Positions 29,133 to 62,176 are shown, counted from the stretch's first letter. The stretch: 64,000 bases of DNA from an uncultured Planctomycetia bacterium (GCA_964433975.1 CAYSSS010000001.1:78257-142256), one strand, 5' to 3'. Notes: generated by a model not told the origin, from the letters alone. Program-made: numbers and translations.

Positions 29133-29134
29133 AG

Positions 29135-29731
29135 ATGAAGAAGATCGTGCTGGTGGGTGGCGGTGGGCATTGTAAGGTTGTCATTGATGCGATAGAATCC
29201 TCCGGCGAATTCGACATATGCGGAATCGTAGATCCTTCGCTTTCCAAAGGAAAATCGGTTTTAAATATAGCGGTATTAGGGAAAGATGATATTTTGCCGG
29301 AATTATTCAGGAAAGGAATAGCACATGCTTTTATAAGCGTCGGTTCTATCGGTAATTGCGATATAAGGAAGAAGATATATAAGGATCTGAAGGATACAGG
29401 GTTTAAATTACCGGTTATTGTACACCCGAAGGCAGCGGTCTCTAAGTATGTCGAATTTGGCGAAGGCGCCTTTGTTGCTGCCGGAGCAGTTATTAACGCC
29501 GATACGAAGATCGGCAAGAACGCGATCATAAATACCTCGTCTTCTGTAGATCATGATTGTGAAATAGGCGATTTCGTGCATATTGCGCCCGGAGCAATCT
29601 TAAGCGGAGGAGTTAAGATTGGCGACGGGGCCCATGTTGGTGTCGGCGCGAGGATAGTTCAGTGTTTAAGCATAAAGGAAAATTCTTTTATCAAGGCCGG
29701 CGCGTTAATCACAGAAAGTACCCTTAAGTAA
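29135..29731 (+). CDS. Hexapeptide-repeat N-acetyltransferase of the NeuD/PglD/LegH family.
   Basis: MKKIVLVGGGGHCKVVIDAIE N-terminal Rossmann-like region, then a left-handed beta-helix repeat region. Confidence 0.75.
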   Translation: MKKIVLVGGGGHCKVVIDAIESSGEFDICGIVDPSLSKGKSVLNIAVLGKDDILPELFRKGIAHAFISVGSIGNCDIRKKIYKDLKDTGFKLPVIVHPKAAVSKYVEFGEGAFVAAGAVINADTKIGKNAIINTSSSVDHDCEIGDFVHIAPGAILSGGVKIGDGAHVGVGARIVQCLSIKENSFIKAGALITESTLK

Positions 29732-34371: not shown

Positions 34372-34402
34372 TGAATCCCGGACTAAAAAGAGAGGAAGGA
34401 AT

Positions 34403-35509
34403 ATGGAGAAAAAAGACTTAATTAATGTCATCGTTAAAGAAGGCACATCTATTAAGACGGCCATGAAGCAAATGGACTCCACGGGACTCAAGATACTCTT
34501 TGTAGTCGATTCATCAGGCAGTCTCATAGGTGCGATGACTGACGGGGATTTCCGCAGGTGGATCCTGGATGGTAAAAGTTGTAACGAGGACGTACGAAAC
34601 CCGTGCAACAAAAATCCAATAACATTTTCATCTGAAGATTATGACATAGAAAAGATAAAACAGATAATGATAAAGGAGAGATTGGAATGCGTCCCCATAA
34701 TTGACGGCAACCGGACGATTACGGACGCGCTTTTCCGGGAAGATGTTTTCGGGAATAAATATAAGAAGGCAAAGAAAGCGCTGACGGTCCCAGTTGCCAT
34801 AATGGCAGGCGGAGAGGGATCCAGGCTGTCACCCTTTACAAAGATATTGCCGAAACCTCTCATACCGTTAAACGAAAAGCCTATTGCAGAAGTTATCATG
34901 GACCGTTTTGCCGAATTTGGTTGCGACGAGTTTTATCTTCTTCTGGGATATAAGGGCGTGATGATACAGTCGTATTTTGACAATGCCAAGAGTGGCCATA
35001 AGCCCATATATATGTATGAGAAGGAGCCCAGCGGGACAGCGGGCTCGCTCAAGCTGCTGTCCGACAAGCTCTCGACCGACTCTCTTTTTGTTTCCAATTG
35101 CGACATCCTGATCGAGGCCGACTATGCTAATATGTATGAATCTCACCTGAAGAATAACTGCGACATAACCATAGTAGGGGCCATGAGGCATTTTGTCATT
35201 CCTTACGGCGTTATAGATATGGGACCAGGCGGTAATATAGGTAAGTTAATCGAAAAACCGGAGTACGATTTTCTTGTGAACACAGGAATGTATATATTGA
35301 ATAAAAACACACTTTCCTATATTCCTAAAAAAGGAAAGTTTGATTTTACGGAGCTTATTAAAAAAACGCGGGAAAAAGGCGGTAAGATCAGCGTGTATCC
35401 CGTCAGTGAAAAATCATGGTTAGATATAGGTCAGATTGAATTACTGGAGGAGGCTGTTTCGGGAACGCTTGGAGAGAAATGGAGCCGCATGAAAAGAGGG
35501 GCCGCATGA
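34403..35509 (+). CDS. CBS-domain-pair plus sugar-phosphate nucleotidyltransferase (PtmE-like).
   Basis: The N-terminus has paired CBS repeats. The nucleotidyltransferase motif is VAIMAGGEGSRLSPFTKILPKPL. Confidence 0.75.
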   Translation: MEKKDLINVIVKEGTSIKTAMKQMDSTGLKILFVVDSSGSLIGAMTDGDFRRWILDGKSCNEDVRNPCNKNPITFSSEDYDIEKIKQIMIKERLECVPIIDGNRTITDALFREDVFGNKYKKAKKALTVPVAIMAGGEGSRLSPFTKILPKPLIPLNEKPIAEVIMDRFAEFGCDEFYLLLGYKGVMIQSYFDNAKSGHKPIYMYEKEPSGTAGSLKLLSDKLSTDSLFVSNCDILIEADYANMYESHLKNNCDITIVGAMRHFVIPYGVIDMGPGGNIGKLIEKPEYDFLVNTGMYILNKNTLSYIPKKGKFDFTELIKKTREKGGKISVYPVSEKSWLDIGQIELLEEAVSGTLGEKWSRMKRGAA

Positions 35510-36231
35510 TCGAGAATAAAAAAATATTGGCCCTCATACCAGCCCGCGGCGGCTCAAAAGGGATTCCCGGAAAGAACATAAAGAACTTTAATGGAAAGCC
35601 TTTGATAGCCTGGACCATAGAAGAAGCTAAAAAGAGTAAATATCTGGATAAGATAGTGGTTAGCACCGACTCCGGCGCAATAGCCGATATCGCAGTTAAA
35701 TATGGCGCCGAAGCCCCTTTCATTAGGCCCGGAGGACTGGCAAGTGATAATGCCAATATGATGGATGTCGTTCTTCACTGCATCAATTTTTTTCAAGATA
35801 CAGGCGACAACTATGACATCATTGTTCTGCTCCAGCCCACTTCTCCGCTTAGAAGGGCGGATGATATTGACGGAGCAATTGAATTTTTCATTGAAAAAAA
35901 TGCGAATGCTGTCTTAGGCGTTGTAGCGTGTGACCACCCCCCGCAACTTGCAGGGATATTGCCGAAAGACTTAAGTATGAATAATTTTGTTCAGGGAAAT
36001 AGCGGGAATAAAAACCGCCAGGAACTGAGGGCCTATTACAGAGTCAATGGCGCGCTTTATTTAGCCGACATAGATTTCATTTTGCGTAAACGGGACTGGT
36101 ATGGAGCAAAAACATTTGCCTATATCATGAAAAAAGAACGCTCAGCGGATATAGACGATCTTTTCGATTTTATGTTAGCGGAATTCGTTATGAAGGCACA
36201 GGGTCCTCTAGGTATGGGGGATGGCTTATGA
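35506..36231 (+). CDS. CMP-nonulosonic acid synthetase (acylneuraminate cytidylyltransferase family, NeuA/LegF-like).
   Basis: ILALIPARGGSKGIPGKNIK motif. The ATGA overlap with the upstream stop puts the likely start at 35506, not at the track start 35479. Confidence 0.8.
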   Translation: MIENKKILALIPARGGSKGIPGKNIKNFNGKPLIAWTIEEAKKSKYLDKIVVSTDSGAIADIAVKYGAEAPFIRPGGLASDNANMMDVVLHCINFFQDTGDNYDIIVLLQPTSPLRRADDIDGAIEFFIEKNANAVLGVVACDHPPQLAGILPKDLSMNNFVQGNSGNKNRQELRAYYRVNGALYLADIDFILRKRDWYGAKTFAYIMKKERSADIDDLFDFMLAEFVMKAQGPLGMGDGL

Positions 36232-48790: not shown

Positions 48791-49738
48791 ATGAGATTAA
48801 TAGTCCAGATACCCTGTTATAACGAGGAAAAGACATTGCCGCTTGTTTTGAATAGCATACCCAGAAAGATAAACGGCATAGATGACGTAAAGATCCTGGT
48901 AATAAACGACGGGAGCAGTGACAAGACCGTAGAGGTGGCGAAGAAGTTGGGAGTCGACCATATAGTAGATATGCCTTTTCACCGGGGTTTAGCCGAGGCG
49001 TTCAGGAAGGGTCTCGATAAAAGTCTGGAATTGGGGGCCGATATCATAGTGAATACTGATGGGGATAATCAGTATAAAGGAGAGGACATACCGCGGCTGG
49101 TAGAGCCTATCCTCAATAAAAGAGCCGAGATAGTTATAGGGTGCAGAGATATCTTCGCGATCTCCCACTTCTCTGTTTTAAAGAAGCTGCTTCAGGGAGT
49201 GGGTAGCTATATCGTAAGGAAATTTTCCAACACCGCGATACCCGACACTACAAGTGGTTTCAGGGCCTACTCCAGGGACGCCGCGCTGCGCCTGAATATC
49301 TTTTCAGCCTACACGTATACCCTTGAAACTATTATACAGGCGGGGAGAAAAGAGATCCCGTTAGCGCATATCGACATCAAGACAAACGAAAAGACGAGAG
49401 AGTCCAGACTGATAAAGAGCATAACATCCTATATCAGAAGGTCAATAGCGACTATCTTGCGCATATATCTCATGTATGAGCCGATGAAGTTCTTTGTAAA
49501 GATAGGATCGGTCTTTTTAGCGCTCGCGGCAATATTAGGCGGGCGCTATGTCTATTTCTTTTTCTTTGGCGCGAAGCGAGGCGGACATGTACAATCGCTT
49601 ATCCTGGCGATCATCCTGACCATAATAGGCGCTCAGCTGGTCTTTACCGGATTTTTGGCGGACATAATAGCCGCTAACAGGAAACTGGCGGAAGAGAACC
49701 TGTACAGGCAGAGGAAGGAGCAGCTTAAGGTAAAATAG
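48791..49738 (+). CDS. GT2 polyprenyl-phosphate sugar synthase with C-terminal TM helices (GtrB/ArnC/DPMS-like).
   Basis: IVQIPCYNEEKTL and VINDGSSDKT motifs. The C-terminal 90 aa contain two hydrophobic helices, as in GtrB. Confidence 0.8.
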   Translation: MRLIVQIPCYNEEKTLPLVLNSIPRKINGIDDVKILVINDGSSDKTVEVAKKLGVDHIVDMPFHRGLAEAFRKGLDKSLELGADIIVNTDGDNQYKGEDIPRLVEPILNKRAEIVIGCRDIFAISHFSVLKKLLQGVGSYIVRKFSNTAIPDTTSGFRAYSRDAALRLNIFSAYTYTLETIIQAGRKEIPLAHIDIKTNEKTRESRLIKSITSYIRRSIATILRIYLMYEPMKFFVKIGSVFLALAAILGGRYVYFFFFGAKRGGHVQSLILAIILTIIGAQLVFTGFLADIIAANRKLAEENLYRQRKEQLKVK

Positions 49739-49746
49739 AGCCCATC

Positions 49747-50853
49747 ATGAAAATTTTATATATAACACGCAAATTCCCCCCCACTATAGGCGGGATGCAG
49801 ACCCAAAGCAGGCAATTTTACGAAAATATCAGTAAGCGTAATGATGTTTTTCTGATAGCCTGGGGCCATTCTCAATTTTTTCTGCCGTTTTTCATTATTT
49901 ACGCTTTTGTAAGGGCGGCCATAATATTATCAACAAAAGATGTCGAGATAATTCAGCTGGGGGACTTTGTACTCTCGCCCCTGGGGTCATTGCTGAAAAC
50001 TTTATTCAAAAAACCTGTTCTGACCATATCACACGGCAGGGACTCTGTTTACACTAGTCCGTTTTATGATCATTTCATACTGGGCTCCGCAAAAAAACTG
50101 GACAGGGTCATATGTGTAAGCCGCAATAACATGAAGACGCTTGCCTCCAGGGGCATCCCGGAAGATAAGCTGAGAGTTATACCTAACGGGATAAACTTAG
50201 GTGATGCAAACATCAATGATCTAAATAGAGAGCAGTCTCTCGATCTGATAGAAAAAAGATTCGGTATCAATTTGAGGGAGAAGAATAATATTCTTTCGGT
50301 ATCCCGGCTCGTTCCCAAGAAGGGCATAAGGGAGTTCGTAGAAGACGTGCTGCCTTCGATCAGCAAAAGAGTGGATAACGCGTGCTTTGTGATAGCGGGC
50401 GACGGATGCGAAAAGGAGAGGATCTATCAGGCGGTGAACAGGCTCAATCTTAAGGATAGGGTCTATCTGCTGGGAAACGTTGAGCACGGTTCTGCCATAT
50501 ACAGAGCGTTATTTTCGGTGAGTAATGTATTCGTTATGCCGAACATACGGGTCAGTGATGACGCCGAGGGTTTCGGTGTAGTGGCGTTGGAGGCGGCTGT
50601 CAACAAAACGCCTCTTGTCGCTTATGATGTAGATGGCATAAGCGAGGCGGTGCACGACAAAGAGAACGGCATCCTGATCAAAGAAAAGAACGCGGAGCTT
50701 TTTTCGGACGCCGTGTGCGGTTTTTTAAAAGACAGCGTATTGCGCCAGAATTTTACGAACAGGGCAAGAGAATATGTCGCAAAAAAATTCTCCTGGGATC
50801 GCATCATAGGCATGTATGAAGAGGAATACCTTCAGCTTTTAAAAAGAGGATGA
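49747..50853 (+). CDS. GT4-family glycosyltransferase (GT-B fold).
   Basis: N-terminus KILYITRKFPPTIGGMQT. The C-terminal EX7E region is EGFGVVALEAAVNKTPLVAYDVDGISEAV. Confidence 0.8.
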   Translation: MKILYITRKFPPTIGGMQTQSRQFYENISKRNDVFLIAWGHSQFFLPFFIIYAFVRAAIILSTKDVEIIQLGDFVLSPLGSLLKTLFKKPVLTISHGRDSVYTSPFYDHFILGSAKKLDRVICVSRNNMKTLASRGIPEDKLRVIPNGINLGDANINDLNREQSLDLIEKRFGINLREKNNILSVSRLVPKKGIREFVEDVLPSISKRVDNACFVIAGDGCEKERIYQAVNRLNLKDRVYLLGNVEHGSAIYRALFSVSNVFVMPNIRVSDDAEGFGVVALEAAVNKTPLVAYDVDGISEAVHDKENGILIKEKNAELFSDAVCGFLKDSVLRQNFTNRAREYVAKKFSWDRIIGMYEEEYLQLLKRG

Positions 50854-50856: not shown

Positions 50857-51543
50857 ATGGCCGGGACCGCATATACGAAGACTACCGAAAAGAACAAAGA
50901 GTTCTATAACAAGCTTTATAAAAAGTCCAGAGTCAAGAGGGCGTATTTTGGGGAATTGAAGTACTTCCTCGACATGGCGGGCGACACAATGGGTAAGGTC
51001 GTAGTATCGATAGGGAACGGAGATAACGAGCCTCTATTTCAGAAGCAGATAGTTTCCGATATATCTTTGGAGGGCATGAGGAATGTGCGATCCGGGCCCA
51101 AGTGCGTTATTGACGCGCACAACATGCCCTTTAAGCAGGATTCGGTAGACCTTATTTACGGTTGGCAGGTTGCCCATCACCTGGATGTTAACAGGTTCCT
51201 CGCGCAGTTGAAATATGTGCTTAAGGCCGGCGGCAAGGCTATCTTTGTGGATAATGCCTACTCTCCGCAATGGAGGTACTTAAGAAAGCTGTTACCCAAA
51301 AGTAAAGTAGACCCCAAAGAGGATCTCGGAGAAGAGTACCTGTCCGAGAAGGCCGGTGAATACGGTTTTTCGCATTTCAGTTCGAAGAGGTTCAATTTTT
51401 TCGCGTATCTCGTGAATAAATTAATGAGAAACGCAGGCCTGAATGTAAAGCTGGATTTTCTTGAGCATCTGGACAATTATTGTTCCAGATGGAAAATATT
51501 CCGGGATAACCTGAGGAATATGGTATGGAGCCTGGAAAAATGA
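50857..51543 (+). CDS. Probable class I SAM-dependent methyltransferase (degenerate motif I).
   Basis: Motif-II-like DAHNMPFKQDSVDLIYGWQVAHHL and motif-III-like LKAGGKAIFVDN. Motif I is atypical (VVVSIGNGD). Confidence 0.4.
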   Translation: MAGTAYTKTTEKNKEFYNKLYKKSRVKRAYFGELKYFLDMAGDTMGKVVVSIGNGDNEPLFQKQIVSDISLEGMRNVRSGPKCVIDAHNMPFKQDSVDLIYGWQVAHHLDVNRFLAQLKYVLKAGGKAIFVDNAYSPQWRYLRKLLPKSKVDPKEDLGEEYLSEKAGEYGFSHFSSKRFNFFAYLVNKLMRNAGLNVKLDFLEHLDNYCSRWKIFRDNLRNMVWSLEK

Positions 51544-51559: not shown

Positions 51560-52684
51560 ATGAGGATATTTTCTGTTACAATGGCGCCGATAAGCCCTCC
51601 TTATGACGACGGGCCGAAGAATATTGTGATGGCGCTGGCGAAAAAACTGCCCATGCACGATTATTATTTTGTTTCATCGCGCAAACGAAGCTTTCCGCAC
51701 ACAGCTAATACCATATTTATCAAATCCCCTTTTCAAAGAACAGGGCGGCACAGCATGGCGTTATTTCAAAAAATTTATATATTCTTCCTGACCGTTCTTT
51801 ACAAGAGCAGGATGGACCTCTTCCAGTTCTTCTTTACGCCGCAGCCATATTTTTCGTTTATCTTCAGAAGGCTCCTAAAGAATAAGAGGTCAATACAGAT
51901 AGTCTCATCGATACATACATTATTGGAAAAAAATGGAGAGGACGCGATCGGCTCTCTCTTCTTTTCGGATTATGTAGTGGTGCATTCCGAATATGCCAGG
52001 CAAAAACTTGCCGAAAAGAATGTAAAGAATATAGTAAAGATCTATCCGGCCATAGAAGAAGAGCGTTTTAACGGCGTAACGGCGCCGGATTCCTGCGGAG
52101 AGGTAAGAATAGTATACCCGGGGACATATAAAGTGCTGGCCGATGCTTATTCGCTGGGGGATTTCTGTAAAATAGCTCTGCGCGTGAAAGACGAGGTAAG
52201 CAACGCGAGGTTTGTTATGGCCTGCCGGATAAGGACAAGGGAAGACTCAGGTCTTGAGAAGAGATTCAAGTCGCTGGTAAGAGAATGCGGTCTTGAGAGA
52301 TCGTTTACTTTTCTTAATACCATAGACGAGATGCCGTCATTTTTAAAAGGATGCTCCATTGGTATAATGCCGGCCAGGCGTCCGATGAGCGGTATACTGG
52401 AGATTCCACTCGTTCTGCTCGAACTCGCGATCCTCGGTAAGCCGGTAGTCTACGGGAACGTTCCGCCGCTTGGGGAACTTGACAGCAGGGGGCTGGGCAT
52501 AATGGTATCCGATGATTCGTGCGAATCTTACGCTAAAGCGATTATAAAGTGCGTCAACGACGGCGGTTATGCTTCGATGGTTGGCGAAAGGTCAAGGAAT
52601 GCCGTAAGGGTGGATTTCACAATAGATATCGCCGCAGGCGAGTATCAACGATTATATAAAGTACTTCAGGATAAAGATGAATAG
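51560..52684 (+). CDS. GT4-like glycosyltransferase (GT-B fold).
   Basis: The C-terminal region GIMPARRPMSGILEIPLVLLELAILGKPVVYGNV...GIMVSDDS resembles the GT4 donor-binding domain. Confidence 0.55.
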   Translation: MRIFSVTMAPISPPYDDGPKNIVMALAKKLPMHDYYFVSSRKRSFPHTANTIFIKSPFQRTGRHSMALFQKIYIFFLTVLYKSRMDLFQFFFTPQPYFSFIFRRLLKNKRSIQIVSSIHTLLEKNGEDAIGSLFFSDYVVVHSEYARQKLAEKNVKNIVKIYPAIEEERFNGVTAPDSCGEVRIVYPGTYKVLADAYSLGDFCKIALRVKDEVSNARFVMACRIRTREDSGLEKRFKSLVRECGLERSFTFLNTIDEMPSFLKGCSIGIMPARRPMSGILEIPLVLLELAILGKPVVYGNVPPLGELDSRGLGIMVSDDSCESYAKAIIKCVNDGGYASMVGERSRNAVRVDFTIDIAAGEYQRLYKVLQDKDE

Positions 52685-54179
52685 CGATCAAAGAGTACGT
52701 CTGATAACGCACGACTCCTATCCGCCGGATGCCAGGACTAAAAGAGCGCTCTCCGGAATGGCCGATGTGGAGGGCGTGGTAAAACCCATTGTGGCCCTTC
52801 CCGACATTCATTTTAAGCACTCGTACCACACGCCGACGGGCGTCGTTGTAATGACAAGAGACAGAATAATACCGAAATTTGTCAACGCAAATTGCGGCAT
52901 GTCTTTTATTAAAACGCCATTCTTCGAGCGCGATATAAACAACGATACCCTGGACACGATATTCAATCACTTGCGAAATAATATAGCGGTCTCTGCCAGG
53001 AGTGCGCCTATTATCAGCAGTTCCGATCTTAAAGATATAGTAAGAAGAGGCGCAGAGTGGTCTATTGAAAAGTACGGACTCTCTCCCGACGACCTTGGCA
53101 GTTTTGAAAATAACGGCTCACTCTTAAAGGATGACACAAGAAGCATAGACGAGATCATGTCATATATACCCCAGGCCTGTCAGCAGATGGGGCTGTTGAG
53201 TTGGGGGGTCTTGGGATACGGCAATCATTTTGTGGAGCTTCATGTTGTGGAAGAGATAGTTAATGCCGAGATAGCGCAACAATTCAATATATCAAAAGGT
53301 CAGATCTGTTTTATGATCCACGGGGACTCACGCGCCTTCGGGCAGTCCATATTTGACTTTTACTCCGGCAAAGCGAAGAAGCTGTTCGGGCTGCAGCAGG
53401 TCTACAAGAAGCTGCACTATAAAATATTTTCTTCGCCGCACAGCTCACCAATAATGAAAAGTGTTCTCGATAAGCTTAATTATTATCTCAACAGGGCGAA
53501 GTCGACGGTCTATTGGAAGATGGATGGATGGAAGAAGAACGGACGCGCCTCCTTCGGCGGCTTTGACGCCCAGAGCGAGGAGGGGGTGGCTTATCTGACG
53601 AGCACTTACTCGGCCATAGATTACGGTTATGCTAACAGGGCCTACATGGCCTCCATAATCCGGGACTCCTTAAAACATGCGTTCAAAGATGATTCGGCAG
53701 AGGTGAATATTCTGTACGACGGGAACCACGATGCCCTGCAGAAGGAGGTCGTTGATGGCGTTGAATTCTATGCGCACAGGAACGGAGCGAGCAGGGCATT
53801 GCCTGCCGGTTATTTTAAGGACCATCCCGTATTTTCACAGACCGGACAGCCGATATTACTGCCAAGCTCTCTGGGAAGCCCCTCTTTTTTATGCGCCGTT
53901 ACAAAGGGATGCAAGGACTCCTATTACTCCTCCTGCCACGGTACGGGCAGGATAGTGGACAGGGGCCAGGCGAGGCAGCTCTTCACGGCAAAAGATATAT
54001 TCGAGGATATGAAGAGCAAGAATGTCAGGATATACGATTATGGAAAAGGCAACGCGTCGGAAGAGGCGCCCGGCGCTTTTAAGGACGTGGAAAAGATCCT
54101 CGAGTCTGTGATAAAGCACGGGATCGCGGAGCCGGTGGCAAGGTTAAAGCCTCTGGCGTCCCTTAAAGGTTGGAGGTAA
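52677..54179 (+). CDS. Divergent RtcB-family protein (3'-phosphate/5'-hydroxyl nucleic acid ligase superfamily).
   Basis: The RtcB metal- and GTP-binding motifs are conserved: ALPDIH (as MPDVH), NCGM (as GCGM), GYGNHFVELH (as GTGNHFIE), HGDSRAFG (as HSGSRGIG), NHDALQKE (as HHNYVQKE) and SSCHGTGR (as SCSHGAGR). Length is 500 aa. Its start overlaps the upstream GT4 gene by 8 bp. Confidence 0.75.
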   Translation: MNSDQRVRLITHDSYPPDARTKRALSGMADVEGVVKPIVALPDIHFKHSYHTPTGVVVMTRDRIIPKFVNANCGMSFIKTPFFERDINNDTLDTIFNHLRNNIAVSARSAPIISSSDLKDIVRRGAEWSIEKYGLSPDDLGSFENNGSLLKDDTRSIDEIMSYIPQACQQMGLLSWGVLGYGNHFVELHVVEEIVNAEIAQQFNISKGQICFMIHGDSRAFGQSIFDFYSGKAKKLFGLQQVYKKLHYKIFSSPHSSPIMKSVLDKLNYYLNRAKSTVYWKMDGWKKNGRASFGGFDAQSEEGVAYLTSTYSAIDYGYANRAYMASIIRDSLKHAFKDDSAEVNILYDGNHDALQKEVVDGVEFYAHRNGASRALPAGYFKDHPVFSQTGQPILLPSSLGSPSFLCAVTKGCKDSYYSSCHGTGRIVDRGQARQLFTAKDIFEDMKSKNVRIYDYGKGNASEEAPGAFKDVEKILESVIKHGIAEPVARLKPLASLKGWR

Positions 54180-54180
54180 T

Positions 54181-54801
54181 TTGATAATAGCATTTTCCGG
54201 CATTGACGGCTCAGGCAAGACCACATACGCGGTCTCGGTGGTCGAATACATAAGGGGTAAGAGCCTGAAGGCCAGGTACAGGCACAATGTAAGAGATACT
54301 TTCTATCACCTGATCCTTCATAAGGGTATAGGAGGCGTTTCGGAATCATCCAGGGCGTCCATAGAAACGGCCTTAAGAAACAAAAAGAACAGGGCGTATT
54401 TTTCTTTTGCCGGGTCCATAAAAAAAATCCTCCTTCTTATGGACCTAATCTTCTTTAATATCAGGTACGGAAGCTACAAAGGGTCCAGGGCGAAGACGCT
54501 GGTTTGCGACAGGTATTTTTATGACGAAATCGTGCAGATGAGATATCTTGGCCTTTCGCGGGAAAAGTTCATCCGTTTTTATGAGAGCCTTATAATAAGT
54601 CCGGATACGCTATTCTTCGTAAAGAGCGATCCGATGGTCGCGTACGAAAGAAAGAGCGAGTACGACAAAGAATATTTTCTGAAAAAAACGGATCTCTATT
54701 CGGACGCGTATAAGACGATAGGACACGTGGAGATAGAAGACAGCGATCTTAAAGTTAATGAGCGCTCCATAAAGGCCAAGATCGACAGGGTGATATGTTA
54801 A
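54181..54801 (+). CDS. Thymidylate-kinase-like P-loop nucleotide/sugar kinase.
   Basis: Walker A IAFSGIDGSGKTTYA and a DRY motif (VCDRYFYDE), as in dTMP kinases. It has a TTG start immediately after the RtcB-like stop. Confidence 0.6.
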   Translation: MIIAFSGIDGSGKTTYAVSVVEYIRGKSLKARYRHNVRDTFYHLILHKGIGGVSESSRASIETALRNKKNRAYFSFAGSIKKILLLMDLIFFNIRYGSYKGSRAKTLVCDRYFYDEIVQMRYLGLSREKFIRFYESLIISPDTLFFVKSDPMVAYERKSEYDKEYFLKKTDLYSDAYKTIGHVEIEDSDLKVNERSIKAKIDRVIC

Positions 54802-55745
54802 ATATGACAAAAAAACGTTTTTTACAGAAATTGCTTATAGTGATCATTACGCTGGCGTTCGCCTTTTATATCAAAAAGAACTTTCATCATCTTAGGGATA
54901 CGGTCTCTATACGGCCTTCATTTCTTATATTCCTGGTCCTGCTGAATCTGCTGAATAAGCTATTTCTCGGTTTCAAGACACGCAGAATAATGGAGTCGTT
55001 CGGCATACGCCTTTCGTTCAAAGAATGGTTCGGCATGTCATGTGTAGGTAATTTTTATAATTATCTCGTACCAAAAAGCGGCACGGCGGTCTGCGGCGTA
55101 TATATGAAGAATAAGTATGGCCTTAACTATCATAAGTACCTTAGCGTGCTGATAACCACGGGATTGATCACGATATTTACTTCCGGGCTGGTAGGCCTGG
55201 TGGTCAGCCTATTTTTCCGCTTACCTCATTTTATGGACACGGTGATCTTTATGATATTGTTCACGGGCATGATCGCGGGGCCGTCCGCTCTCTTTCTCCT
55301 GCCGAGGATCAGGCTTCCCGAAAAAGGTCTCTTTATAAAAATAAATGAATTTTTCGAAGGGTGGGAGATATTGCGCAAGGATCTTAAGACAATTATAGCG
55401 ATCTCCATGGTAGATCTTCTGGTTCTGTTATCTGTGGCGGCGCGCTACTTTATCATATTCAAGATCTTCTCCTTGCCGATCGCTTTCGCGTCTTGTGTAC
55501 TGCTTTCACCGTTTAATATAATCACTCATTTCGCCACGATAATTCCGGGTGGTTACGGTATAAAAGAGGCTACGGTAGGGGCCGTCTCAACCTTGACCAA
55601 TATATCATTTGCGGCCGGGGCGCTGGCTACTCTTACCGACAGGGTGGTCATGATGGCGGTCGCATTTATTCTGGGCCCGATCTTCAGCTTTATCCTGCTA
55701 AAGCATAGTTTTAAAGATAACAAAGGGGGAGCGCTTCATGAATAA
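54795..55745 (+). CDS. Polytopic membrane protein, possibly flippase-like (UPF0104/MprF-TM-like).
   Basis: 316 aa with about 8 predicted TM helices and no catalytic motifs I recognise. Confidence 0.3.
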   Translation: MLNMTKKRFLQKLLIVIITLAFAFYIKKNFHHLRDTVSIRPSFLIFLVLLNLLNKLFLGFKTRRIMESFGIRLSFKEWFGMSCVGNFYNYLVPKSGTAVCGVYMKNKYGLNYHKYLSVLITTGLITIFTSGLVGLVVSLFFRLPHFMDTVIFMILFTGMIAGPSALFLLPRIRLPEKGLFIKINEFFEGWEILRKDLKTIIAISMVDLLVLLSVAARYFIIFKIFSLPIAFASCVLLSPFNIITHFATIIPGGYGIKEATVGAVSTLTNISFAAGALATLTDRVVMMAVAFILGPIFSFILLKHSFKDNKGGALHE

Positions 55746-57306
55746 TCAAGGCTCATGCGCCGTAGCAATAGCCGTATTTTTTATATCGCTGTACTCTCTA
55801 TTCTGTATAGGCCATTACGGTGGTGACGGTTACGAGGATTTTCTGACGGCCAAAAGTATTGTGCTGCATCGTAGTCTGGCGCTCGGCGGCGGCCCTGATA
55901 GCGTCGGGCATGGCGATATGGACGAGTTAAATTATAAAAAAGACGCAGGAATAGAAGGACGGGATGGAAGAAAGTACAGCTCACGGGGAGGCCTTATAAT
56001 TCCGGCAATACTCTCCTTCTTTTATCTCGCGGGGCATGTCGTGTCCGGATTTTTCAAGAATATACCGCATGACTTTATAACGATCTTCTTTGTTTCGTTT
56101 TCAAACCCTGTTATTTCCGCCGTCAACTGCTTATTAATATTTCTTATTTCTTTGGGTCTCTCTTTTTCAAGGCGTACATCTATAGCGTTGACCATGATAT
56201 ACGGCCTCGCTACGATGGTGCCGGTATATTCAAGGACGGGATTCGGAGAGCCGGCAATGACATTATTCATTCTTCTGGCGGTATATTTTGCCTTAAGGTT
56301 TCAAAATACTGCTAAAATAGGATATCTCGCCGCCGCAGGCGCCGCGATAGGGCTAGCCGTTTTTACAAGATCAACGGCTATAATATTTTTACCGGCTCTT
56401 ATTTTTTATATCGGATGGATTATATTGTCAGGCAGGAAAGAGAGGGGAGGCCTCCTTAAAGAAATGGCGACGTTTGCTGTGCCATTGCTTGTTATTCTGG
56501 TCGCGGTAATCGGATGCAATTATTTCATATACGGGAAGATACTGAAGTTTGGCGGCAGGGAGGCGTTAGGCGTTACGGGACGCGTCATGGAAGCGCCTCA
56601 TCTTTTAAAAGGTTTGTACTATTATCTATTCAGCACGGGTAAAGGTTTTTTCCTGTTCAATCTTCCGCTGGTACTTTCATTCGCCGGGTTATTATTGGTA
56701 CCTTTAAAGAGAAAAAAAGAGGCGGCGCTTTTTATCCTGATATTTATCTGCAACCTTCTATTCTTCAGCATGTCCTTCAGGCGGGGGTCTCTTTTCGCGT
56801 GGGGCCCAAGGTATCTTTATCCTTCGGTTGCCGCGCTTGTGCTTTTGGCGGGATTTTTTATCGACAACAATAGAAGTCTTAAAGGCAAATTAAGTACGGC
56901 CGTTCTTTCTATAGTGGGATTTTTGATCATGGCGCCCTGCATGTTTATCAATCAATCGAAGTTCTATTTTTTTGTTAAGGAAAAGCTTAATCTGCCGGAA
57001 TATATGATCAACTTTATCCCGGATCTTTCGCCCATTCTTGGCGCATGGAAGATGTTTATATCGCGCCTGGTTTTTATCGCGAAGGGCGTGGAAGCGCCTT
57101 TCATATACAATCCTGATTACAGGCTCGTATCTCCGATAAGCGCCAGCATGGCCGAATATAATGATTTCGATTTTTGGTTTACTAAGGTGTTCTATTACAA
57201 TAGCGAATACGCTCCCGCGGTATATGGAGCTGTGTTCGCGCTTACGGCTGCAGCGTTAATATCGCTTGCCTTTATTTTAAGAGAAGCGCGCAAGAGGAGC
57301 GTTTAA
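55738..57306 (+). CDS. GT-C fold membrane glycosyltransferase-like protein (ArnT/PMT_2-like).
   Basis: 522 aa polytopic. The first loop has an acidic GDGYED motif after TM1. Confidence 0.5.
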   Translation: MNNQGSCAVAIAVFFISLYSLFCIGHYGGDGYEDFLTAKSIVLHRSLALGGGPDSVGHGDMDELNYKKDAGIEGRDGRKYSSRGGLIIPAILSFFYLAGHVVSGFFKNIPHDFITIFFVSFSNPVISAVNCLLIFLISLGLSFSRRTSIALTMIYGLATMVPVYSRTGFGEPAMTLFILLAVYFALRFQNTAKIGYLAAAGAAIGLAVFTRSTAIIFLPALIFYIGWIILSGRKERGGLLKEMATFAVPLLVILVAVIGCNYFIYGKILKFGGREALGVTGRVMEAPHLLKGLYYYLFSTGKGFFLFNLPLVLSFAGLLLVPLKRKKEAALFILIFICNLLFFSMSFRRGSLFAWGPRYLYPSVAALVLLAGFFIDNNRSLKGKLSTAVLSIVGFLIMAPCMFINQSKFYFFVKEKLNLPEYMINFIPDLSPILGAWKMFISRLVFIAKGVEAPFIYNPDYRLVSPISASMAEYNDFDFWFTKVFYYNSEYAPAVYGAVFALTAAALISLAFILREARKRSV

Positions 57307-57312: not shown

Positions 57313-58923
57313 ATGGACGAACTCGTCAATATACAGGTTGGCCTATTAGGCAGGTCGTTTGAGATCTCTTCTATGCTCAAACAAGAGGGCGTTCCGTATT
57401 TTGAGCACGACCCCAGGGTGTCCGGTAGCCTGGATGGCATCGGGTCTATGCTTATCATAGACAAGGTGACCGGCCGCGATACTGAGTTATTGAAAGTCTA
57501 TCTGCGCAAAAAGGGCGCGATCATATGCGATGTTCTGAACAAGGAGTTAATATCCGCTCTTTGCGCTAAAAGGCTGGATCGCGGCGATAACGCACATGAT
57601 GAGTGCATCGAGCTTTACGAATCAGGGGGCGGCCATGTTATATATGTAAGCAAATATCTGCGTAGGTCGGCCGGGGACAGGAACGCTGTCGTTAAAGAGT
57701 TTTACACATCAGCCGGGATAGTAAGGGAAAGAGTGGCGTTGTTTCCCGGGTATAGAGACAGGGATATTCTGTCGCGCGCTCTGATGATGTCGTTTCACGT
57801 GCGTGGCCTGCCATTCGTCAGGCTATGGTATTATCCCAAAAGCTGCAAGTCCGTCTTTAATTTTCGGTTTGATCTGGACGAAGATACCGGCAATGACCTG
57901 GAACATATAGCGGAGGCCTCGAAAGAATTCAAAGATTGCACGACGTGGTTTGTCTCATGCGCGTCTTTCGAAAAGAATGCTCACAAAATAAAGAGGCTGA
58001 TCGATGACGGGTTTGATGTGCAATCGCATGGCTACTACCATCACACTTACGGTGACAGAAGTCAGAATGAATTAAATATAAGAAAATCGATAGATTATAT
58101 TGCCGGCCTTAGCGGGTTGGTCGAGGGCTTTGCCGCGCCCATGGGAAGATGGAACGAAGGCCTTCAGCTTGTACTGGAAAGGCTTGGGCTTCTATATAGT
58201 TCCGAGTTCTCGCTCGATTACGATGATTTGCCGTTTTATCCTGTATTGCATGGCAGGCCTTCAAGTGTATTGCAGATACCCATCCACCCTATATGCTGGG
58301 GCATTTATAAGGATGCCGGAATAGGGGATGACAATGCCATAAAAGAATACATGCAGAAAGTCATAATTAACAAACATTATGCCCGGTTGCCAGTGCTTAT
58401 TTACGGGCATCCGAGCGAAAGTATAGGCAAGAACCCTGCTTTGTTAAAGGCGATATATAAAACAGCCGGTTCTCTGTCAGATGTAAGTCGGGTGAGGTTG
58501 TCCGATCTGGCGAAATGGTGGCGCAACAGAGATAAGGTAAGATTTAAGGACGTTGTATTCAATGCCTCTAAAAAGACAATCAGCTATGCTATCAAAGGGG
58601 GCACCCATATTTCAGATCTTTGTCTCAATATACAGATAAAACCGGATAAAGTATCCTATCATAGTATTGCCGGGCCTTGCGGTGAAATATGTCTGGACGG
58701 GCTTAAATATGAAGAGATACGCAATCTCAAGGCGGATCCGGACCTGTATAGAGAGGCTGTCTGTAAGAAAAGTCGGCTGAAGAGGCTGAAAGAAGGCGTC
58801 GTTGCCATGCTCGACTGGGAAGAGTGCACACCATTAGGCGAAATAAAAAGAAATTCAATAGCGTCTAATCTAAAGTATGTGCTTAGAAGATGCGGTTTTG
58901 ATAAAGTAAAATTAAACGTCTAG
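57313..58923 (+). CDS. Polysaccharide deacetylase-like (NodB/CE4 homology) protein with N- and C-terminal extensions.
   Basis: NodB-like motifs: FRFDLDED (as TFDDG), SHGYYHH (as H-S/T-x-x-H) and AAPMGRW (as R-P-P-x-G). Confidence 0.55.
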   Translation: MDELVNIQVGLLGRSFEISSMLKQEGVPYFEHDPRVSGSLDGIGSMLIIDKVTGRDTELLKVYLRKKGAIICDVLNKELISALCAKRLDRGDNAHDECIELYESGGGHVIYVSKYLRRSAGDRNAVVKEFYTSAGIVRERVALFPGYRDRDILSRALMMSFHVRGLPFVRLWYYPKSCKSVFNFRFDLDEDTGNDLEHIAEASKEFKDCTTWFVSCASFEKNAHKIKRLIDDGFDVQSHGYYHHTYGDRSQNELNIRKSIDYIAGLSGLVEGFAAPMGRWNEGLQLVLERLGLLYSSEFSLDYDDLPFYPVLHGRPSSVLQIPIHPICWGIYKDAGIGDDNAIKEYMQKVIINKHYARLPVLIYGHPSESIGKNPALLKAIYKTAGSLSDVSRVRLSDLAKWWRNRDKVRFKDVVFNASKKTISYAIKGGTHISDLCLNIQIKPDKVSYHSIAGPCGEICLDGLKYEEIRNLKADPDLYREAVCKKSRLKRLKEGVVAMLDWEECTPLGEIKRNSIASNLKYVLRRCGFDKVKLNV

Positions 58924-58940: not shown

Positions 58941-60839
58941 ATGAAAGAGATTGCCGATAAATTTATCGCGTTGGCCGCGAACAAAAAAAAGAACGAAGAA
59001 GCGAGGTCGTTTTTTTTGAAAGAGATAGAAGGCGAATATAATCCGCTTCTATGGAAATGTTATATATCCCATATGACAGAAAAAAGGGATAGATTTAAAA
59101 AGAAGGAGCGAATAGCTCTTCTCGGCTCATCCAACATAACGCCCGTAAAGAACATGTTGCGGTCGGTTTTTGACGCGAATAAGATCTCGACAGATTACTT
59201 CGTAGGGGAATATGGCAATTATCTTCAGGAGCTGATGCTGGATGGGTCGAAGCTCTATTCGTTTAATCCCACGATGACGATCATCCTGCTTAGCCTTCCA
59301 GATATCATGCCGTCAGTTTATGAATATCCCTTTTCGCATAACAAGAAGAGCGTTGACGATCTGCTGGCGAAGCTGTCCCGGGACTTGAGGACGGCTCTGG
59401 GCAAATATTCTTCCGCTCTTGCGAAGAACACCACTTATGTGGCCATTGTCCCATCTTATGAGGAGCCGTGCAACTACGTCTACTCTCCCGGGAGTTCGTT
59501 CAAAAGCGATAACTACTTAATGAAACTGCAGGATGCCGTTGAAAGTCTGGAGAAAGAAAAGAATAACATTGTGATGATGAATGGCAGAAGATGCGTCAGC
59601 AAGCATCCGGCCCGCAGGATCGAGGACAAGCGATACTGGTACCTTGGGAGGATCCGCTATACGGACCTATTCTTCTCTGAGGTCGCCAAAGAACTCATGG
59701 GGCTCTACAGGATCATCAATACGCCCTCAAAAAAATGTTTAATACTGGACCTCGATAATACACTGTGGGGGGGAGTGATAGGACAAGACGGCTTTGAGAA
59801 TATAGAGCTTGGCCAGGATGGCATCGGCAGGGCATATCAGGACTTTCAAAGAGAGGCCTTAAAATTGCACAAAAAAGGGATTATACTCGCGATCTGCAGT
59901 AAAAATAACGAATCGGACGCTATGGAATTCTTTAAAACGCACACGGAGATGATACTGAAGCCGGAGCATTTCGCGGCAAAGCGGATAAACTGGAGTGACA
60001 AGGCCTCCAACATAAAAGATATCGCCAGGGAGATCAATATCGGGCTGGACTCCGTGGTCTTTTTTGACGATGATCCGGCGGAGAGAAAGTGGGTGAGGGA
60101 TAGCCTGCCGCAGGTCACCGTTCCGGAGCCACCGCAGGATCAATTTTTATACGCTGAATTTCTAAAAAACTCCGAATGGTTTAAGTCCTATAAGCTTAGC
60201 GAGGAGGACCTTTCCAGAAATATTACTTATGAAGCTATTGCCAGAACGAAAGGCCTGAAAAGTTCCTCGAGTAACGAAGGCGCCTTCTTAAAGAGCCTCG
60301 CTCAATCCTTGACAATTGAACGTGTTGATGCGTCAACGGTTTCGAGAGCCGTTCAGCTTTGCCAAAAGACGAACCAATTTAACCTGACCACCAGGAGATA
60401 TCAGTTGGCGGATATTAAGGATGTTATGTCTTACAAACTTAATCATGTCTATACGATAAGGGCCAAAGACTGTTTTTGTGACTACGGTATCGTCGGCGTC
60501 TTGATCCTGAAGGGGCAGGCCTCAGACAGGTCTCTAACGATAGACACGTTTCTATTGAGCTGCAGGATCATAGGGAGAAAGATAGAGAACGTTCTATTGG
60601 ACTGGGTTAAGAGCAAGGCCAAGGCCGAAGGATACGCCAGGTTATACGGCGTATATTCAAAAACAGAAAAAAATGCCGTTTGCGCAAATATCTATAAGGA
60701 CAGCGGCTTCACTGTCGTCTACAGGCGCGGTAGAGATATTAAATACGAATGCTCCCTTGATAAAAGATTGGGGCTTTATCCGTTTGGGAAATTCGTCAAA
60801 GTAGAACTGAAGAAGAGTAGAGATGGAAAAAAAACTTAA
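58941..60839 (+). CDS. FkbH-like HAD-superfamily (subfamily IIIC) phosphatase / acyl-ACP-forming enzyme.
   Basis: LILDLDNTLWGGVIGQDG (the DxDxT HAD motif I) and ...VFFDDDPAE (motif IV). A C-terminal domain is present. It is immediately followed by an ACP gene. Confidence 0.75.
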   Translation: MKEIADKFIALAANKKKNEEARSFFLKEIEGEYNPLLWKCYISHMTEKRDRFKKKERIALLGSSNITPVKNMLRSVFDANKISTDYFVGEYGNYLQELMLDGSKLYSFNPTMTIILLSLPDIMPSVYEYPFSHNKKSVDDLLAKLSRDLRTALGKYSSALAKNTTYVAIVPSYEEPCNYVYSPGSSFKSDNYLMKLQDAVESLEKEKNNIVMMNGRRCVSKHPARRIEDKRYWYLGRIRYTDLFFSEVAKELMGLYRIINTPSKKCLILDLDNTLWGGVIGQDGFENIELGQDGIGRAYQDFQREALKLHKKGIILAICSKNNESDAMEFFKTHTEMILKPEHFAAKRINWSDKASNIKDIAREINIGLDSVVFFDDDPAERKWVRDSLPQVTVPEPPQDQFLYAEFLKNSEWFKSYKLSEEDLSRNITYEAIARTKGLKSSSSNEGAFLKSLAQSLTIERVDASTVSRAVQLCQKTNQFNLTTRRYQLADIKDVMSYKLNHVYTIRAKDCFCDYGIVGVLILKGQASDRSLTIDTFLLSCRIIGRKIENVLLDWVKSKAKAEGYARLYGVYSKTEKNAVCANIYKDSGFTVVYRRGRDIKYECSLDKRLGLYPFGKFVKVELKKSRDGKKT

Positions 60840-61062
60840 ATTTCTGATAGCGAACTGCTGCCAGATAGAGCCATCGGATGTGGGAGACGATGCCGGTGTA
60901 AATGCCACACCTAACTGGGATTCTTTCGGGCACCTTCAGATAATGGTATGTGTCGAGCAGGAGTTTGGCGTCGTATTGGATACAAAGACCATAGCGCAGC
61001 TGACATCGTATAAAGATATTATCAGATACTTGAAAGCGACCAGGAAGAAGAATGGAAAGTAG
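60823..61062 (+). CDS. Acyl carrier protein.
   Basis: 79 aa. The phosphopantetheine attachment motif is WDSFGHLQIMV (DS). Confidence 0.75.
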   Translation: MEKKLKFLIANCCQIEPSDVGDDAGVNATPNWDSFGHLQIMVCVEQEFGVVLDTKTIAQLTSYKDIIRYLKATRKKNGK

Positions 61063-62176
61063 TGTAAGGATTCGTGGTTATGAGGCGCAGGACAAAGGCG
61101 CGGTATTCTCCCTTCTGTCCTCGTTTTACGCCAACATGGATAGCGAGGCAAGCTGGGAGCGCCTTTATATGGACAATCCATCCGGCAGGGCAATAATATC
61201 CGTAGTTCAAGAGCCGCTTAAAAAAAATATAATCGGCCACTATTCCGTGATAAAAATGCCAATGACCGTATTTGGCAAAGAACGCATGGGGGGTAAAGGG
61301 GAAGGAGAGATAGTCGACTTTTCCGTAGTTAAGCAGCTGCTGCGCGACAGAAGCATACCGAATCGCTCTTTTTCCGCGGAGTTATTGAGTCACACCGTTA
61401 TGGAGTCGCTCAATGAAGGACTGAAGCTTATATGTACAAATCCCAGCAACTTGGCCCTTAAATCACATCTGGAGGCGGGATTTAAGGCCATCAAGCAAAG
61501 ATTCGACATATTCATATTCGTATTAAGCGCGAAATATTTTGCGCATCTACTGTCAGAAAAGTCCCGGTTAAAAGTTCTTAGCGCCGCAGCAGGTTTTGCT
61601 TTATGCGCAATATATAAATTATTCCACGCGATCACTATCCTGTATTACAGAGACAGTTCTATATCTCTTGAGCCATTCGAATCATTTGGCGATGTGACGG
61701 ATGAGCTGTACGAAAAGTTTTCCAGGAGCTATACGTTCATAGCTATAGAAAGAAAGCGCGCCCATCTGAACTGGAGGTTTGGCGCGAATGAGTACAGCAA
61801 ATTCATAATAAAGATCGGTGAAGAAGCGGTCGGCTACATGGTCCTGCATATATTTGTAAATCCTAACGGCTTTAAAGAAGCTAATATCGTGGACTATATC
61901 CTGCTGCCGCGATCCTGGGGCAAGTTCGCGGCGATCGTCGTGGAGGCGCTGAGAATCGCGAGGAAAAACAGCTGCGATTTTATAAGATTAAATTATATGT
62001 ACGACATGAAAGAAAAGTTTATGCTTTCAAAGCTTATAAAGAAGCTTCGTTTTATCGGCCGGGAAGATAAGAGAAATATCGTCGTATTCTTATCACCGGA
62101 GCTTAAGCAATTGGAAGCGAAGATTCTGGATGTGGATAATTGGTATTTTACGGACCTGTATTTTGAGAACTACTGA
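61052..62176 (+). CDS. Putative acyltransferase (GNAT / FemAB-like fold).
   Basis: 374 aa with no TM helices. Its position after the FkbH-like and ACP genes suggests an acyl-transfer role. I did not identify a definitive motif. Confidence 0.3.
   Translation: MESSVRIRGYEAQDKGAVFSLLSSFYANMDSEASWERLYMDNPSGRAIISVVQEPLKKNIIGHYSVIKMPMTVFGKERMGGKGEGEIVDFSVVKQLLRDRSIPNRSFSAELLSHTVMESLNEGLKLICTNPSNLALKSHLEAGFKAIKQRFDIFIFVLSAKYFAHLLSEKSRLKVLSAAAGFALCAIYKLFHAITILYYRDSSISLEPFESFGDVTDELYEKFSRSYTFIAIERKRAHLNWRFGANEYSKFIIKIGEEAVGYMVLHIFVNPNGFKEANIVDYILLPRSWGKFAAIVVEALRIARKNSCDFIRLNYMYDMKEKFMLSKLIKKLRFIGREDKRNIVVFLSPELKQLEAKILDVDNWYFTDLYFENY

Follow-up and report, generated by a model that had tools for sequence, protein, structure and literature searches.

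A stretch of 64,000 nucleotides from an uncultured Planctomycetia bacterium, here called the window, encodes a 500-amino acid (aa) protein of the RtcB family (the RtcB-like protein) and a 206-aa P-loop kinase of the thymidylate kinase (Tmk) fold, and the genes of both lie side by side in a glycosyltransferase operon. To our knowledge, RtcB is known only as an enzyme that joins or caps the ends of nucleic acids. Comparison across genomes gives strong support for a functional link between this RtcB-like/kinase pair and a glycan pathway. The RtcB-like protein may be a catalytically competent, RtcB-fold member of a distinct branch that works with a P-loop kinase in glycan or glycolipid assembly rather than in RNA repair, acting as a GTP-dependent activator or ligase of a phosphomonoester made by the kinase; we give this assignment about an even chance of being right.

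An earlier note on this DNA had described a 500-aa RtcB homolog and a Tmk-like kinase with a TTG start within a glycan operon, the first overlapping a GT4 family glycosyltransferase gene by 8 base pairs (bp). The reading frames and junctions are as described there: the stop of the GT4 gene (GT4b in Table 1) overlaps the RtcB-like start by 8 bp, as read from the sequence, and the RtcB-like stop codon (TAA, 54177-54179) is separated by a 1-nucleotide spacer from the kinase TTG at 54181. A Shine-Dalgarno-like motif for the kinase is located within the last RtcB-like codons, and the TTG start is backed by the N-termini of homologs (MIIAFSGIDGSGKTT). At the 3' side, the kinase gene overlaps the gene of a flippase-like protein by 7 bp, and the latter overlaps the gene of a GT-C glycosyltransferase by 8 bp. 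Judging by the junctions, the RtcB-like gene and the kinase gene are predicted to be translationally coupled inside the operon. Linked by these three overlaps and the 1-nucleotide spacer, the GT4b, RtcB-like, kinase, flippase-like and GT-C genes are probably co-transcribed. A scan of the window for promoters and terminators gave weak matches, mostly intragenic and near the expectation from shuffled sequence, and was uninformative.

The closest relatives, with up to 82% identity, were found in metagenome-assembled genomes (MAGs) of Candidatus Omnitrophota, and the genome of the window is Omnitrophota-like. In total, 168 loci were gathered by a scan of genome contigs, a scan of metagenomes and look-ups of exact proteins. 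Among the matches listed, the metagenome scan yielded mostly canonical RtcB and one partial close relative (L081), and the evidence on gene context comes from the genome scan and the exact-protein look-ups. The close clade comprises 11 independent loci (the window, L001-L004, L162, L163, L165, L166, L167 and L168) with 39-82% identity to the query. The glycan neighbourhood, for which the earlier note had considered that it might be unique to this contig, turned out to be recurrent: a Tmk-like kinase gene is located directly downstream of the RtcB-like gene in all 11 loci, a GT4 gene directly upstream in nine, and glycosyltransferase, flippase or GT-C neighbours are present in all but one. Most of these loci also have genes of GT2, LPG_synthase_TM, PMT_2, a deacetylase and a B12-dependent radical S-adenosylmethionine (SAM) enzyme, and homologs of the kinase share their contigs with those of the RtcB-like protein.

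Loci of the Omnitrophota type largely follow the order methyltransferase, GT2, GT4, methyltransferase or radical SAM enzyme, GT4, RtcB-like protein, kinase, LPG_synthase_TM, PMT_2, GT2 and deacetylase, the latter sometimes joined to a formyltransferase. A minimal module, which consists of GT4, GT4, RtcB-like protein and kinase beside a Wzx-type flippase and GT2, occurs in L165, and a similar one in L167. L165 is archaeal, and genes of Ribosomal_L37e and LSM proteins are located nearby; the close clade spans bacteria and at least one archaeon. No RtcA/RtcR, archease, PrfH or tRNA-splicing genes were found in any reading frame of the window or among the genes called in L162-L168. L168 has the most distant of the Tmk-linked RtcB-like genes (39% identity); next to it, in divergent orientation, lies a gene of a CDP-alcohol phosphatidyltransferase, an enzyme of a phosphodiester-forming type (L168:899-1612, minus strand).

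More distant RtcB-like proteins, at 26-34% identity, are encoded in KSB1, Calditrichia, Nitrospinota, Anaerolineae and Dehalococcoidia (Chloroflexota), Acidobacteriota, Planctomycetia and other Omnitrophota. Their genes are found in glycan loci, together with those of GT4, GT2, epimerases, Wzx, ABC exporters and radical SAM enzymes. The gene directly beside them codes for another P-loop kinase, which has weak similarity to the HprK-related kinases (TIGR04352). Two proteins, P0185 (755 aa) and P0237 (885 aa), consist of an N-terminal HprK-like kinase (c4 profile, 351 and 291 bits, respectively) fused to a C-terminal RtcB-like domain, providing Rosetta-stone support for the partnership of the kinase and the RtcB-like protein. 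In other Omnitrophota MAGs, a GT4 enzyme carries an HprK-like kinase domain fused to its C-terminus (L013:6773-9046 and L015:6806-9049). Two genes downstream of this fusion lies a gene of another RtcB-like subfamily (28% identity to the query), and on its flanks are LPG_synthase_TM and PMT_2 genes that have their homologs in the window.

Among the 111 loci with the canonical GFD(I/V)NCG motif, none has a P-loop kinase within two genes and one has any glycosyltransferase within five genes; the corresponding counts for the 44 loci with non-canonical motifs are 35 and 26. In a neighbour-joining tree, the 38 kinase-linked or non-canonical sequences form a single clade excluding the 110 canonical ones, and this split was recovered in 100 of 100 bootstraps. 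The family is small: a profile search of 1.84 billion representatives gave about ten 50%-identity clusters above 480 bits, which are Tmk-linked, and a few dozen more at about 280-420 bits.

In six loci of KSB1, Calditrichia and related MAGs (L005, L006, L008, L010, L082 and L094), conserved genes of a histidine kinase, a response regulator, an APH-family kinase and GT4 precede the HprK-like/RtcB-like pair, and HlyD-like, TolC-like, DUF5666 and Kelch-like genes follow it. The KSB1 MAG PMV_1_maxbin.001 holds two such HprK-like/RtcB-like loci (L008 and L010).

The assignment of the RtcB-like protein to its family, proposed in the earlier note from the motifs, is borne out by the PF01139 hidden Markov model (278.4 bits, E=1.6e-82, cut-off 27), the alignment running from residue 27 to 498 of the protein and from position 4 to 426 of the 426-position profile, i.e. 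over its full length. The scores with the NCBIfam equivalogs of RtcB were below the cut-offs (NF007153, 143 bits against 407; TIGR03073, 107 against 271.8). The AlphaFold2 model (predicted local distance difference test, pLDDT, 93.5) has the RtcB fold: in a Foldseek search, it matched the GMP-bound RtcB of Pyrococcus horikoshii (PhoRtcB, 4dwq_A) with E=8.5e-36 and template modelling (TM) scores of 0.77/0.80, and all the matches below E=1e-3 were RtcB structures. The RtcB-like protein shares its Pfam family and fold with RtcB of the archaeal/eukaryal type, such as P. horikoshii PH1602 and human RTCB (TM 0.75-0.80, 24-26% identity). Its length, which had been taken as a sign of divergence by comparison with the RtcB of Escherichia coli, is normal for this type (480-505 aa), and the real difference is an insertion of about 44 aa, described below.

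All motifs quoted for the protein earlier are present (LPDIH 41-45, NCGM 72-75, GNHFVE 182-187, HGDSR 215-219, NHD 350-352 and CHGTGR 420-425), although the statement that every hallmark of RtcB is kept does not extend to one metal ligand. The active site was compared by mapping residues onto the published contacts of PhoRtcB, using a phmmer alignment to PDB entries 1uc2/4dwq (P. horikoshii numbering, marked Pho), and the columns were counted in 110 canonical RtcB sequences and in the kinase-linked ones (11 of the Tmk-linked clade and 27 others). Fourteen positions are invariant or nearly so in both the canonical and the kinase-linked groups: Pho Asp65, His67, Cys98, Asn202, His203, Phe204, Glu206, His234, Ser237, His329, Pro378, Ser385, His404 and Lys480, corresponding to D43, H45, C73, N183, H184, F185, E187, H215, S218, H351, P396, S403, H421 and K497 of the RtcB-like protein. 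H421 is the predicted guanylylation nucleophile (Pho His404). We take Phe204, Glu206, Ser385, Tyr451 and Lys480 to line the guanine pocket of PhoRtcB, the confirmation in papers being confined to His404 and the metal ligands; the query has F185, E187, S403, F468 (Phe in place of Pho Tyr451) and K497 at these positions, which, like H421, do not vary among the Tmk-linked sequences. The His nucleophile, the Mn1 ligands, the guanine pocket and Asn202 are shared with archaeal/eukaryal-type RtcB.

In PhoRtcB, the binuclear manganese site consists of Mn1, bound by Cys98, His234 and His329, and Mn2, bound by Asp95, Cys98 and His203, where Asp95 also touches the gamma-phosphate of GTP (PMC8051266, PMC10630183). 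The RtcB-like protein has C73, H215 and H351 at the Mn1 positions, and H184 is present as well, whereas the Mn2 ligand Asp95 is replaced by Asn70, which stands in the sequence KFVNANCGM instead of the canonical GFDINCGV. This position is Asp in 110/110 canonical sequences, Asn in 10/11 Tmk-linked ones, and Gly, Ser or Ala in the HprK-linked groups. Pho Asn330, beside the Mn1 ligand His329, is Asn in 110/110 canonical sequences and Asp in all 11 Tmk-linked ones (Asp352 in the query). The reciprocal exchange of Asp95/Asn330 for Asn70/Asp352 may represent a relocation of the Mn2 carboxylate and not its loss.

The side chains of PhoRtcB that touch the strand with the 5'-hydroxyl group are Asn202, Arg238, Arg190, Gln194 and His242; Arg190 touches the third base of this strand as well as its second phosphodiester, His242 lies packed against the 5' nucleoside, and the first phosphodiester is in contact with the main chain of Ser200 (PMC8051266). 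In the query, Asn202 and Arg238 are kept, and the other three are replaced. Arg190, present in 109/110 canonical sequences, is Met, Ile, Val or Ala in the Tmk-linked clade (Met in the query); His242, present in 105/110, is Gln, Arg, Leu or Lys (Gln in the query); Gln194 is Ser in the query, and Ser200, found in 91/110 canonical sequences, is Tyr or Phe in 9/11 Tmk-linked ones. The loss of these canonical contacts with the RNA strand also points to repurposing for the glycan pathway. In our reading, the chemistry of nucleotidyl transfer would be preserved, and the binding site for the hydroxyl-bearing partner would be remodelled.

The insertion of about 44 aa, specific to the Tmk-linked clade, lies at residues 230-297; the region has 69 aa here, whereas canonical sequences have 25-34 aa. 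It is basic (14 Lys and Arg against 3 Asp and Glu), rich in aromatic residues and carries the conserved pattern GLQQ, YKK, NR-KS, YWK. AlphaFold2 modelled it as two helices at lower confidence, and its moderate amphipathicity (muH 0.31-0.45) does not discriminate between binding of a membrane and of a polyanion. Together with the replacements at Asp95, Asn330, Arg190 and His242, this basic helical insertion distinguishes the protein from archaeal/eukaryal-type RtcB, as does its context, which is a glycan operon with a P-loop kinase and not tRNA splicing, rtcBA or archease.

The partner of the RtcB-like protein is a Tmk-fold P-loop kinase distinct from the dTMP kinase of the cell. It matches PF02223 at 37.4 bits, just above the cut-off, over residues 102-165 only, and scores below the cut-offs of the dTMP kinase equivalogs (TIGR00041, 33 bits against 83.25; NF005923, 19.5 against 193). 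The top Foldseek matches of its AlphaFold2 model (pLDDT 87.7) are all thymidylate kinases (TM 0.6-0.7, 15-22% identity). Invariant across the homologs are GxDGxGKTT, DRYFYD and the lid Arg157, with G7, D9, G10, G12, K13, D110, R111 and R157. Residues of about 35-100, between the P-loop and DRY, are not alignable to the Tmk profiles of Pfam and NCBIfam and are partly modelled at pLDDT 55-57; this segment presumably is the dTMP-binding region in Tmk. The FYD that follows DRY, with an invariant Asp115, we assume to be unlike the Tmk pattern. A hydrophobic helix of the kinase (71-99) was considered as a membrane anchor and dropped, since true Tmk enzymes presumably have a buried helix just before DRY.

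The Tmk-like protein could instead be a nucleoside monophosphate kinase that recycles the released GMP, or an enzyme making a diphosphate from a phosphomonoester, and so not the maker of the RtcB substrate. This is consistent with its nearest folds, all of them thymidylate kinases, whose acceptor is a phosphate, and with three invariant residues, namely the Asp in the P-loop and one Arg each in DRY and the lid. It is, however, very improbable: in the sister branches an unrelated kinase, HprK-like and in some cases joined to GT4 or to the RtcB-like domain, takes this place in the gene order, which argues for a substrate-directed role. In addition, the segment between the P-loop and DRY is not alignable to the Tmk profile, the Pfam match covering residues 102-165 only, and the equivalog cut-offs for dTMP kinase are missed. 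Because unrelated kinases occupy this slot, the role of the kinase is probably a generic one, the transfer of phosphate onto a pathway intermediate, and not a role in nucleotide metabolism.

Several observations weigh against assigning the pair to glycan assembly. Three arginines with which canonical RtcB binds nucleic acid or phosphate persist in the Tmk-linked clade: Arg238 in 9/11 of its sequences (it is gone from most HprK-linked ones), Arg408 in all of them and in 22/27 other kinase-linked sequences, and Arg412 likewise in the clade. The missing Mn2 carboxylate could weaken guanylylation with GTP, and the basic insertion would fit RNA as readily as a glycan or an anionic membrane. In true Tmk enzymes, the P-loop Asp and the DRY Arg bind the nucleotide, and the acceptor of the kinase, which keeps both, could be nucleotide-like. 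Finally, the Tmk-linked subclade is present in the full-data neighbour-joining tree but in only 56/100 bootstraps.

Some of these points would be expected if the RtcB-like protein still ligated 3'-phosphate and 5'-hydroxyl ends of RNA or DNA, or capped ends, if its partner phosphorylated polynucleotides or nucleotides, and if the repair pair merely travelled with, or regulated, glycan operons. The full catalytic core is kept along with the three arginines, the basic insertion is compatible with a polyanionic or nucleotide-containing substrate, a kinase and a ligase together follow the classical logic of RNA healing and sealing, and a Tmk-like fold is that of a nucleotide kinase. A retained function on nucleic acids is nevertheless improbable. 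The glycan context recurs across phyla and with two unrelated kinase folds, translationally coupled to GT4 and flippase-like genes, and the GT4 fusion of the HprK-like kinase connects that kinase with glycosyl transfer; Arg190 and His242, characteristic of canonical RtcB, are lost. Moreover, profile scans detected no RtcA, RtcR, archease, PrfH, Pnkp or Hen1 family among the open reading frames (ORFs) of the window, which also has no tRNA or tmRNA (ARAGORN) and no Rfam match. A 5'-kinase would block ligation of the RtcB type, not prepare ends for it. The idea of a captured RNA-repair cassette, raised in the earlier note as an alternative, is likewise disfavoured, because the same kinase pair occurs at every close locus, all but one of these are glycan operons, and no RNA-repair families are present in the window. 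In a PADLOC scan, none of the RtcB-like protein, the kinase, the two GT4 enzymes and the flippase-like protein matched a defence-system model.

The pair resembles T4 Pnk/Rnl and Pnkp/Hen1 in that a P-loop kinase is coupled to a nucleotidyl-transfer ligase, with the genes adjacent or, as in P0185 and P0237, fused. It differs in that the kinases here are of the Tmk fold or HprK-like, not of the Pnk type, and in that the genes around them serve carbohydrate biosynthesis. As the chemistry of RtcB requires a donor-side phosphate, the kinase would make the substrate of the ligase and not a 5'-phosphate end. The constant pairing with a small kinase in sugar-polymer operons, seen in several lineages of uncultivated bacteria and archaea, suggests that the "phosphorylate, then ligate" chemistry of RNA is reused on a non-RNA substrate. 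The RtcB3 of Myxococcus xanthus caps 5'-phosphate ends (PMC10630183), hence RtcB paralogs can change the phosphate acceptor. Both M. xanthus RtcB3 and E. coli RtcB2-PrfH are RtcB paralogs with diverged phosphate/hydroxyl specificity, but their substrates are nucleic acids, in a setting of RNA repair or ribosome rescue, whereas the branch described here is associated with glycosyltransferases, flippases and GT-C enzymes.

A possible pathway may be outlined on the model of the three steps of RtcB, namely formation of His-GMP, transfer of GMP to a phosphomonoester and attack of a hydroxyl group. The adjacent GT4 enzymes would build a sugar-containing intermediate, which the Tmk-fold kinase would phosphorylate to a phosphomonoester. 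The RtcB-like enzyme would guanylylate itself on His421 with GTP and Mn2+ and move the GMP to the phosphomonoester, giving R-O-P-P-5'G, which a hydroxyl of a second sugar, an alcohol or a lipid would then attack, releasing GMP and leaving a phosphodiester bridge. The product would enter the neighbouring Arn-like module of a GT2 polyprenyl-phosphate-sugar synthase, the flippase-like protein and the GT-C enzyme. Both the nature of the substrate and the course of the reaction as far as a phosphodiester, rather than to a GMP-activated intermediate, are inferred. Repurposing of RtcB for a glycan, as the earlier note had proposed, is thus favoured by the conserved context and the lost RNA-strand contacts, and the phosphodiester linkage that it also proposed would be a possible outcome of it. 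A more tentative proposal, somewhat less probable than the one for the Tmk-linked pair, takes in the whole branch: its members would use GTP to ligate or activate phosphomonoesters other than nucleic acids, each with its own P-loop kinase, Tmk-like or HprK-like and in some cases fused, and the two would install phosphodiesters or GMP-activated phosphates in glycans or glycolipids.

The main rival to this pathway is a shorter one, in which the kinase makes X-phosphate and the RtcB-like enzyme adds GMP from His421 and stops, yielding a GDP-X donor for the GT4 enzymes or for a phosphotransferase. The second step of RtcB makes exactly R-O-P-O-P-5'G, and stable DNAppG caps are known (PMC8051266, PMC10630183). 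In L165 and L167, the pair is located with GT4 and GT2, and no nucleotidyltransferase gene was seen within the flanks examined; the lost contacts Arg190 and His242 would fit an enzyme with no second polymeric substrate. On the other hand, the residue that places the attacking hydroxyl for sealing, Asn202, does not vary, Arg238 is retained in most of the clade, and nucleotidyltransferases of conventional types are already encoded in the window (CTP_transf_3 at 43829 and 35479, NTP_transferase at 34403). In addition, we know of no P-loop kinase of the Tmk fold that phosphorylates sugars at the anomeric position. A stop at a GDP-activated donor is unlikely, although a retained function on nucleic acids is less likely still.

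Phosphodiester formation in glycans is otherwise performed by systems such as LicA/LicC/LicD for phosphocholine, TagF-type enzymes and Stealth phosphotransferases, which use a separate nucleotidyltransferase and phosphotransferase with CDP- or UDP-activated donors. The pathway proposed here would have in common with them a glycan phosphodiester made after phosphorylation by a kinase and activation by a nucleotide, but one RtcB-fold enzyme with a covalent His-GMP would do both steps. The flanking genes of GT2, a flippase-like protein, the PMT_2 GT-C enzyme and a deacetylase have the layout of the Arn module (ArnC GT2, flippase, ArnT GT-C and ArnD deformylase). Unlike in that module, all the window matches are below the equivalog cut-offs, and the flippase-like protein belongs to LPG_synthase_TM and not to ArnE/F. 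We know of no Arn system with an RtcB-like enzyme or a Tmk-like kinase.

The features of the operon are listed in Table 1. The order of genes in this block is methyltransferase, GT2, GT4, methyltransferase, GT4, RtcB-like protein, kinase, LPG_synthase_TM, PMT_2, deacetylase and FkbH. The GT2 gene is kept upstream of the RtcB-like gene at 64-75% identity in L001, L002, L003, L013 and L015, and the GT-C gene at 44-54% identity in L001, L002, L013 and L015; the LPG_synthase_TM gene is conserved in L001, L002, L162, L163, L166 and L168. The slot of the second methyltransferase is occupied in relatives by a B12-binding radical SAM enzyme or is empty, and at the position of the deacetylase the relatives have a fusion of Formyl_trans_N and Polysacc_deac_1.

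Table 1. Features of the operon around the RtcB-like/kinase pair (positions in the window).
Feature	Position	Strand	Evidence and remarks
GT2, polyprenyl-phosphate-sugar synthase-like (AglJ/ArnC/PpgS)	48791-49738	+	PF00535 80.7 bits; AglJ 102, ArnC 58.7, PpgS 56.8, below equivalog cut-offs
GT4a glycosyltransferase	49747-50853	+	PF00534 109.8 bits; BshA-like 108 bits, below cut-off; conserved in related loci
SAM-dependent methyltransferase, variable slot	50857-51543	+	PF08241 33 bits
GT4b, divergent GT4 glycosyltransferase	51560-52684	+	PF13692 44.6 bits; PF00534 42 bits
RtcB-like protein	52677-54179	+	ATG start
Shine-Dalgarno-like GGAGG for the kinase	54173-54177	+	read from sequence
Tmk-fold kinase	54181-54801	+	TTG start
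Flippase-like membrane protein, LPG_synthase_TM family	54795-55745	+	PF03706 92.4 bits; TIGR00374 36.8 bits
GT-C glycosyltransferase (PMT_2, ArnT-like)	55738-57306	+	PF13231 35 bits; PF02366 25.4 bits
Polysaccharide-deacetylase-family protein, ArnD-like position	57313-58923	+	PF01522 32 bits

The 64-kb window is essentially a single-strand glycan mega-locus, encoding Polysacc_synt_2 and Wzy_C proteins, Wzx-like flippases, GT-C enzymes and small GT2s. About 53 consecutive genes of the plus strand, with nearly no intergenic space, occupy positions 148-63141; for a glycan locus, it is unusually large and methylation-rich. At least seven glycosyltransferases of the GT-C type are encoded (PMT_2 at 5752, 13505, 15642, 19538 and 55738, GT87 at 12099 and YfhO at 17360), several of them beside small GT2s. 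Five B12-binding radical SAM enzymes were counted, four at 7488, 21230, 23525 and 41594, the fifth being the slot at 50857 as occupied in relatives. A complete-looking pathway of nonulosonic acid synthesis, of the legionaminic/pseudaminic type, is located at 27061-36231 and includes an epimerase/dehydratase, a DegT aminotransferase, a PglD-like acetyltransferase, NeuB, a NeuC-like 2-epimerase, a HisF/HisH-like fusion, a CBS-NTP_transferase and CTP_transf_3.

Near the beginning of the window, the gene of a carbamoyltransferase (NodU/CmcH-like, 4171-5765) is broken: a 79-aa ORF (4171-4410) represents its N-terminus, and a second ORF (4605-5765, 386 aa, TTG start) begins at position 190 of the Carbam_trans_N profile. 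The break reflects a frameshift, an assembly error or a pseudogene formed by deletion. Between this gene and that of a Wzy_C O-antigen-ligase-like protein lies the gene of a papain-family Peptidase_C1 cysteine protease (3366-4178), an odd member of a glycan operon. Downstream of the deacetylase, positions 58941-62176 encode an FkbH-domain protein (TIGR01686, 288 bits), a 79-aa ORF with no Pfam match (60823-61062) and a 374-aa protein with a weak GNAT match. This trio is also conserved in L013 and may form a glyceryl/acyl-carrier-type side branch of the glycan pathway.

Full-text literature searches, for which the RNA-repair survey of Burroughs and Aravind was out of reach, found no paper linking RtcB with glycan loci, Omnitrophota or HprK-like kinases. 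The kinase-linked RtcB branch is probably undescribed in the literature searched: the enzyme family is known, the partner kinase is conserved, the genomic setting is new, and the substrate class is probably new as well. The RtcB-like protein and its kinase are small and soluble, so the proposed function is directly testable. The signatures that separate the branch from true RNA ligases, namely KFVNANCG in place of GFDINCG, a hydrophobic residue in place of Arg190, Asp in place of Asn330 and a neighbouring kinase gene, would improve the annotation of the entries named "RtcB family protein" in Omnitrophota, KSB1, Chloroflexota, Acidobacteriota and some archaea. If the proposal is correct, this would be the first function of RtcB chemistry outside RNA and DNA, with the activation of phosphate through His-GMP extended to carbohydrates or lipids, and it would represent a new route to phosphodiester-linked glycoconjugates and surface polymers that bypasses CDP- or UDP-activated donors.

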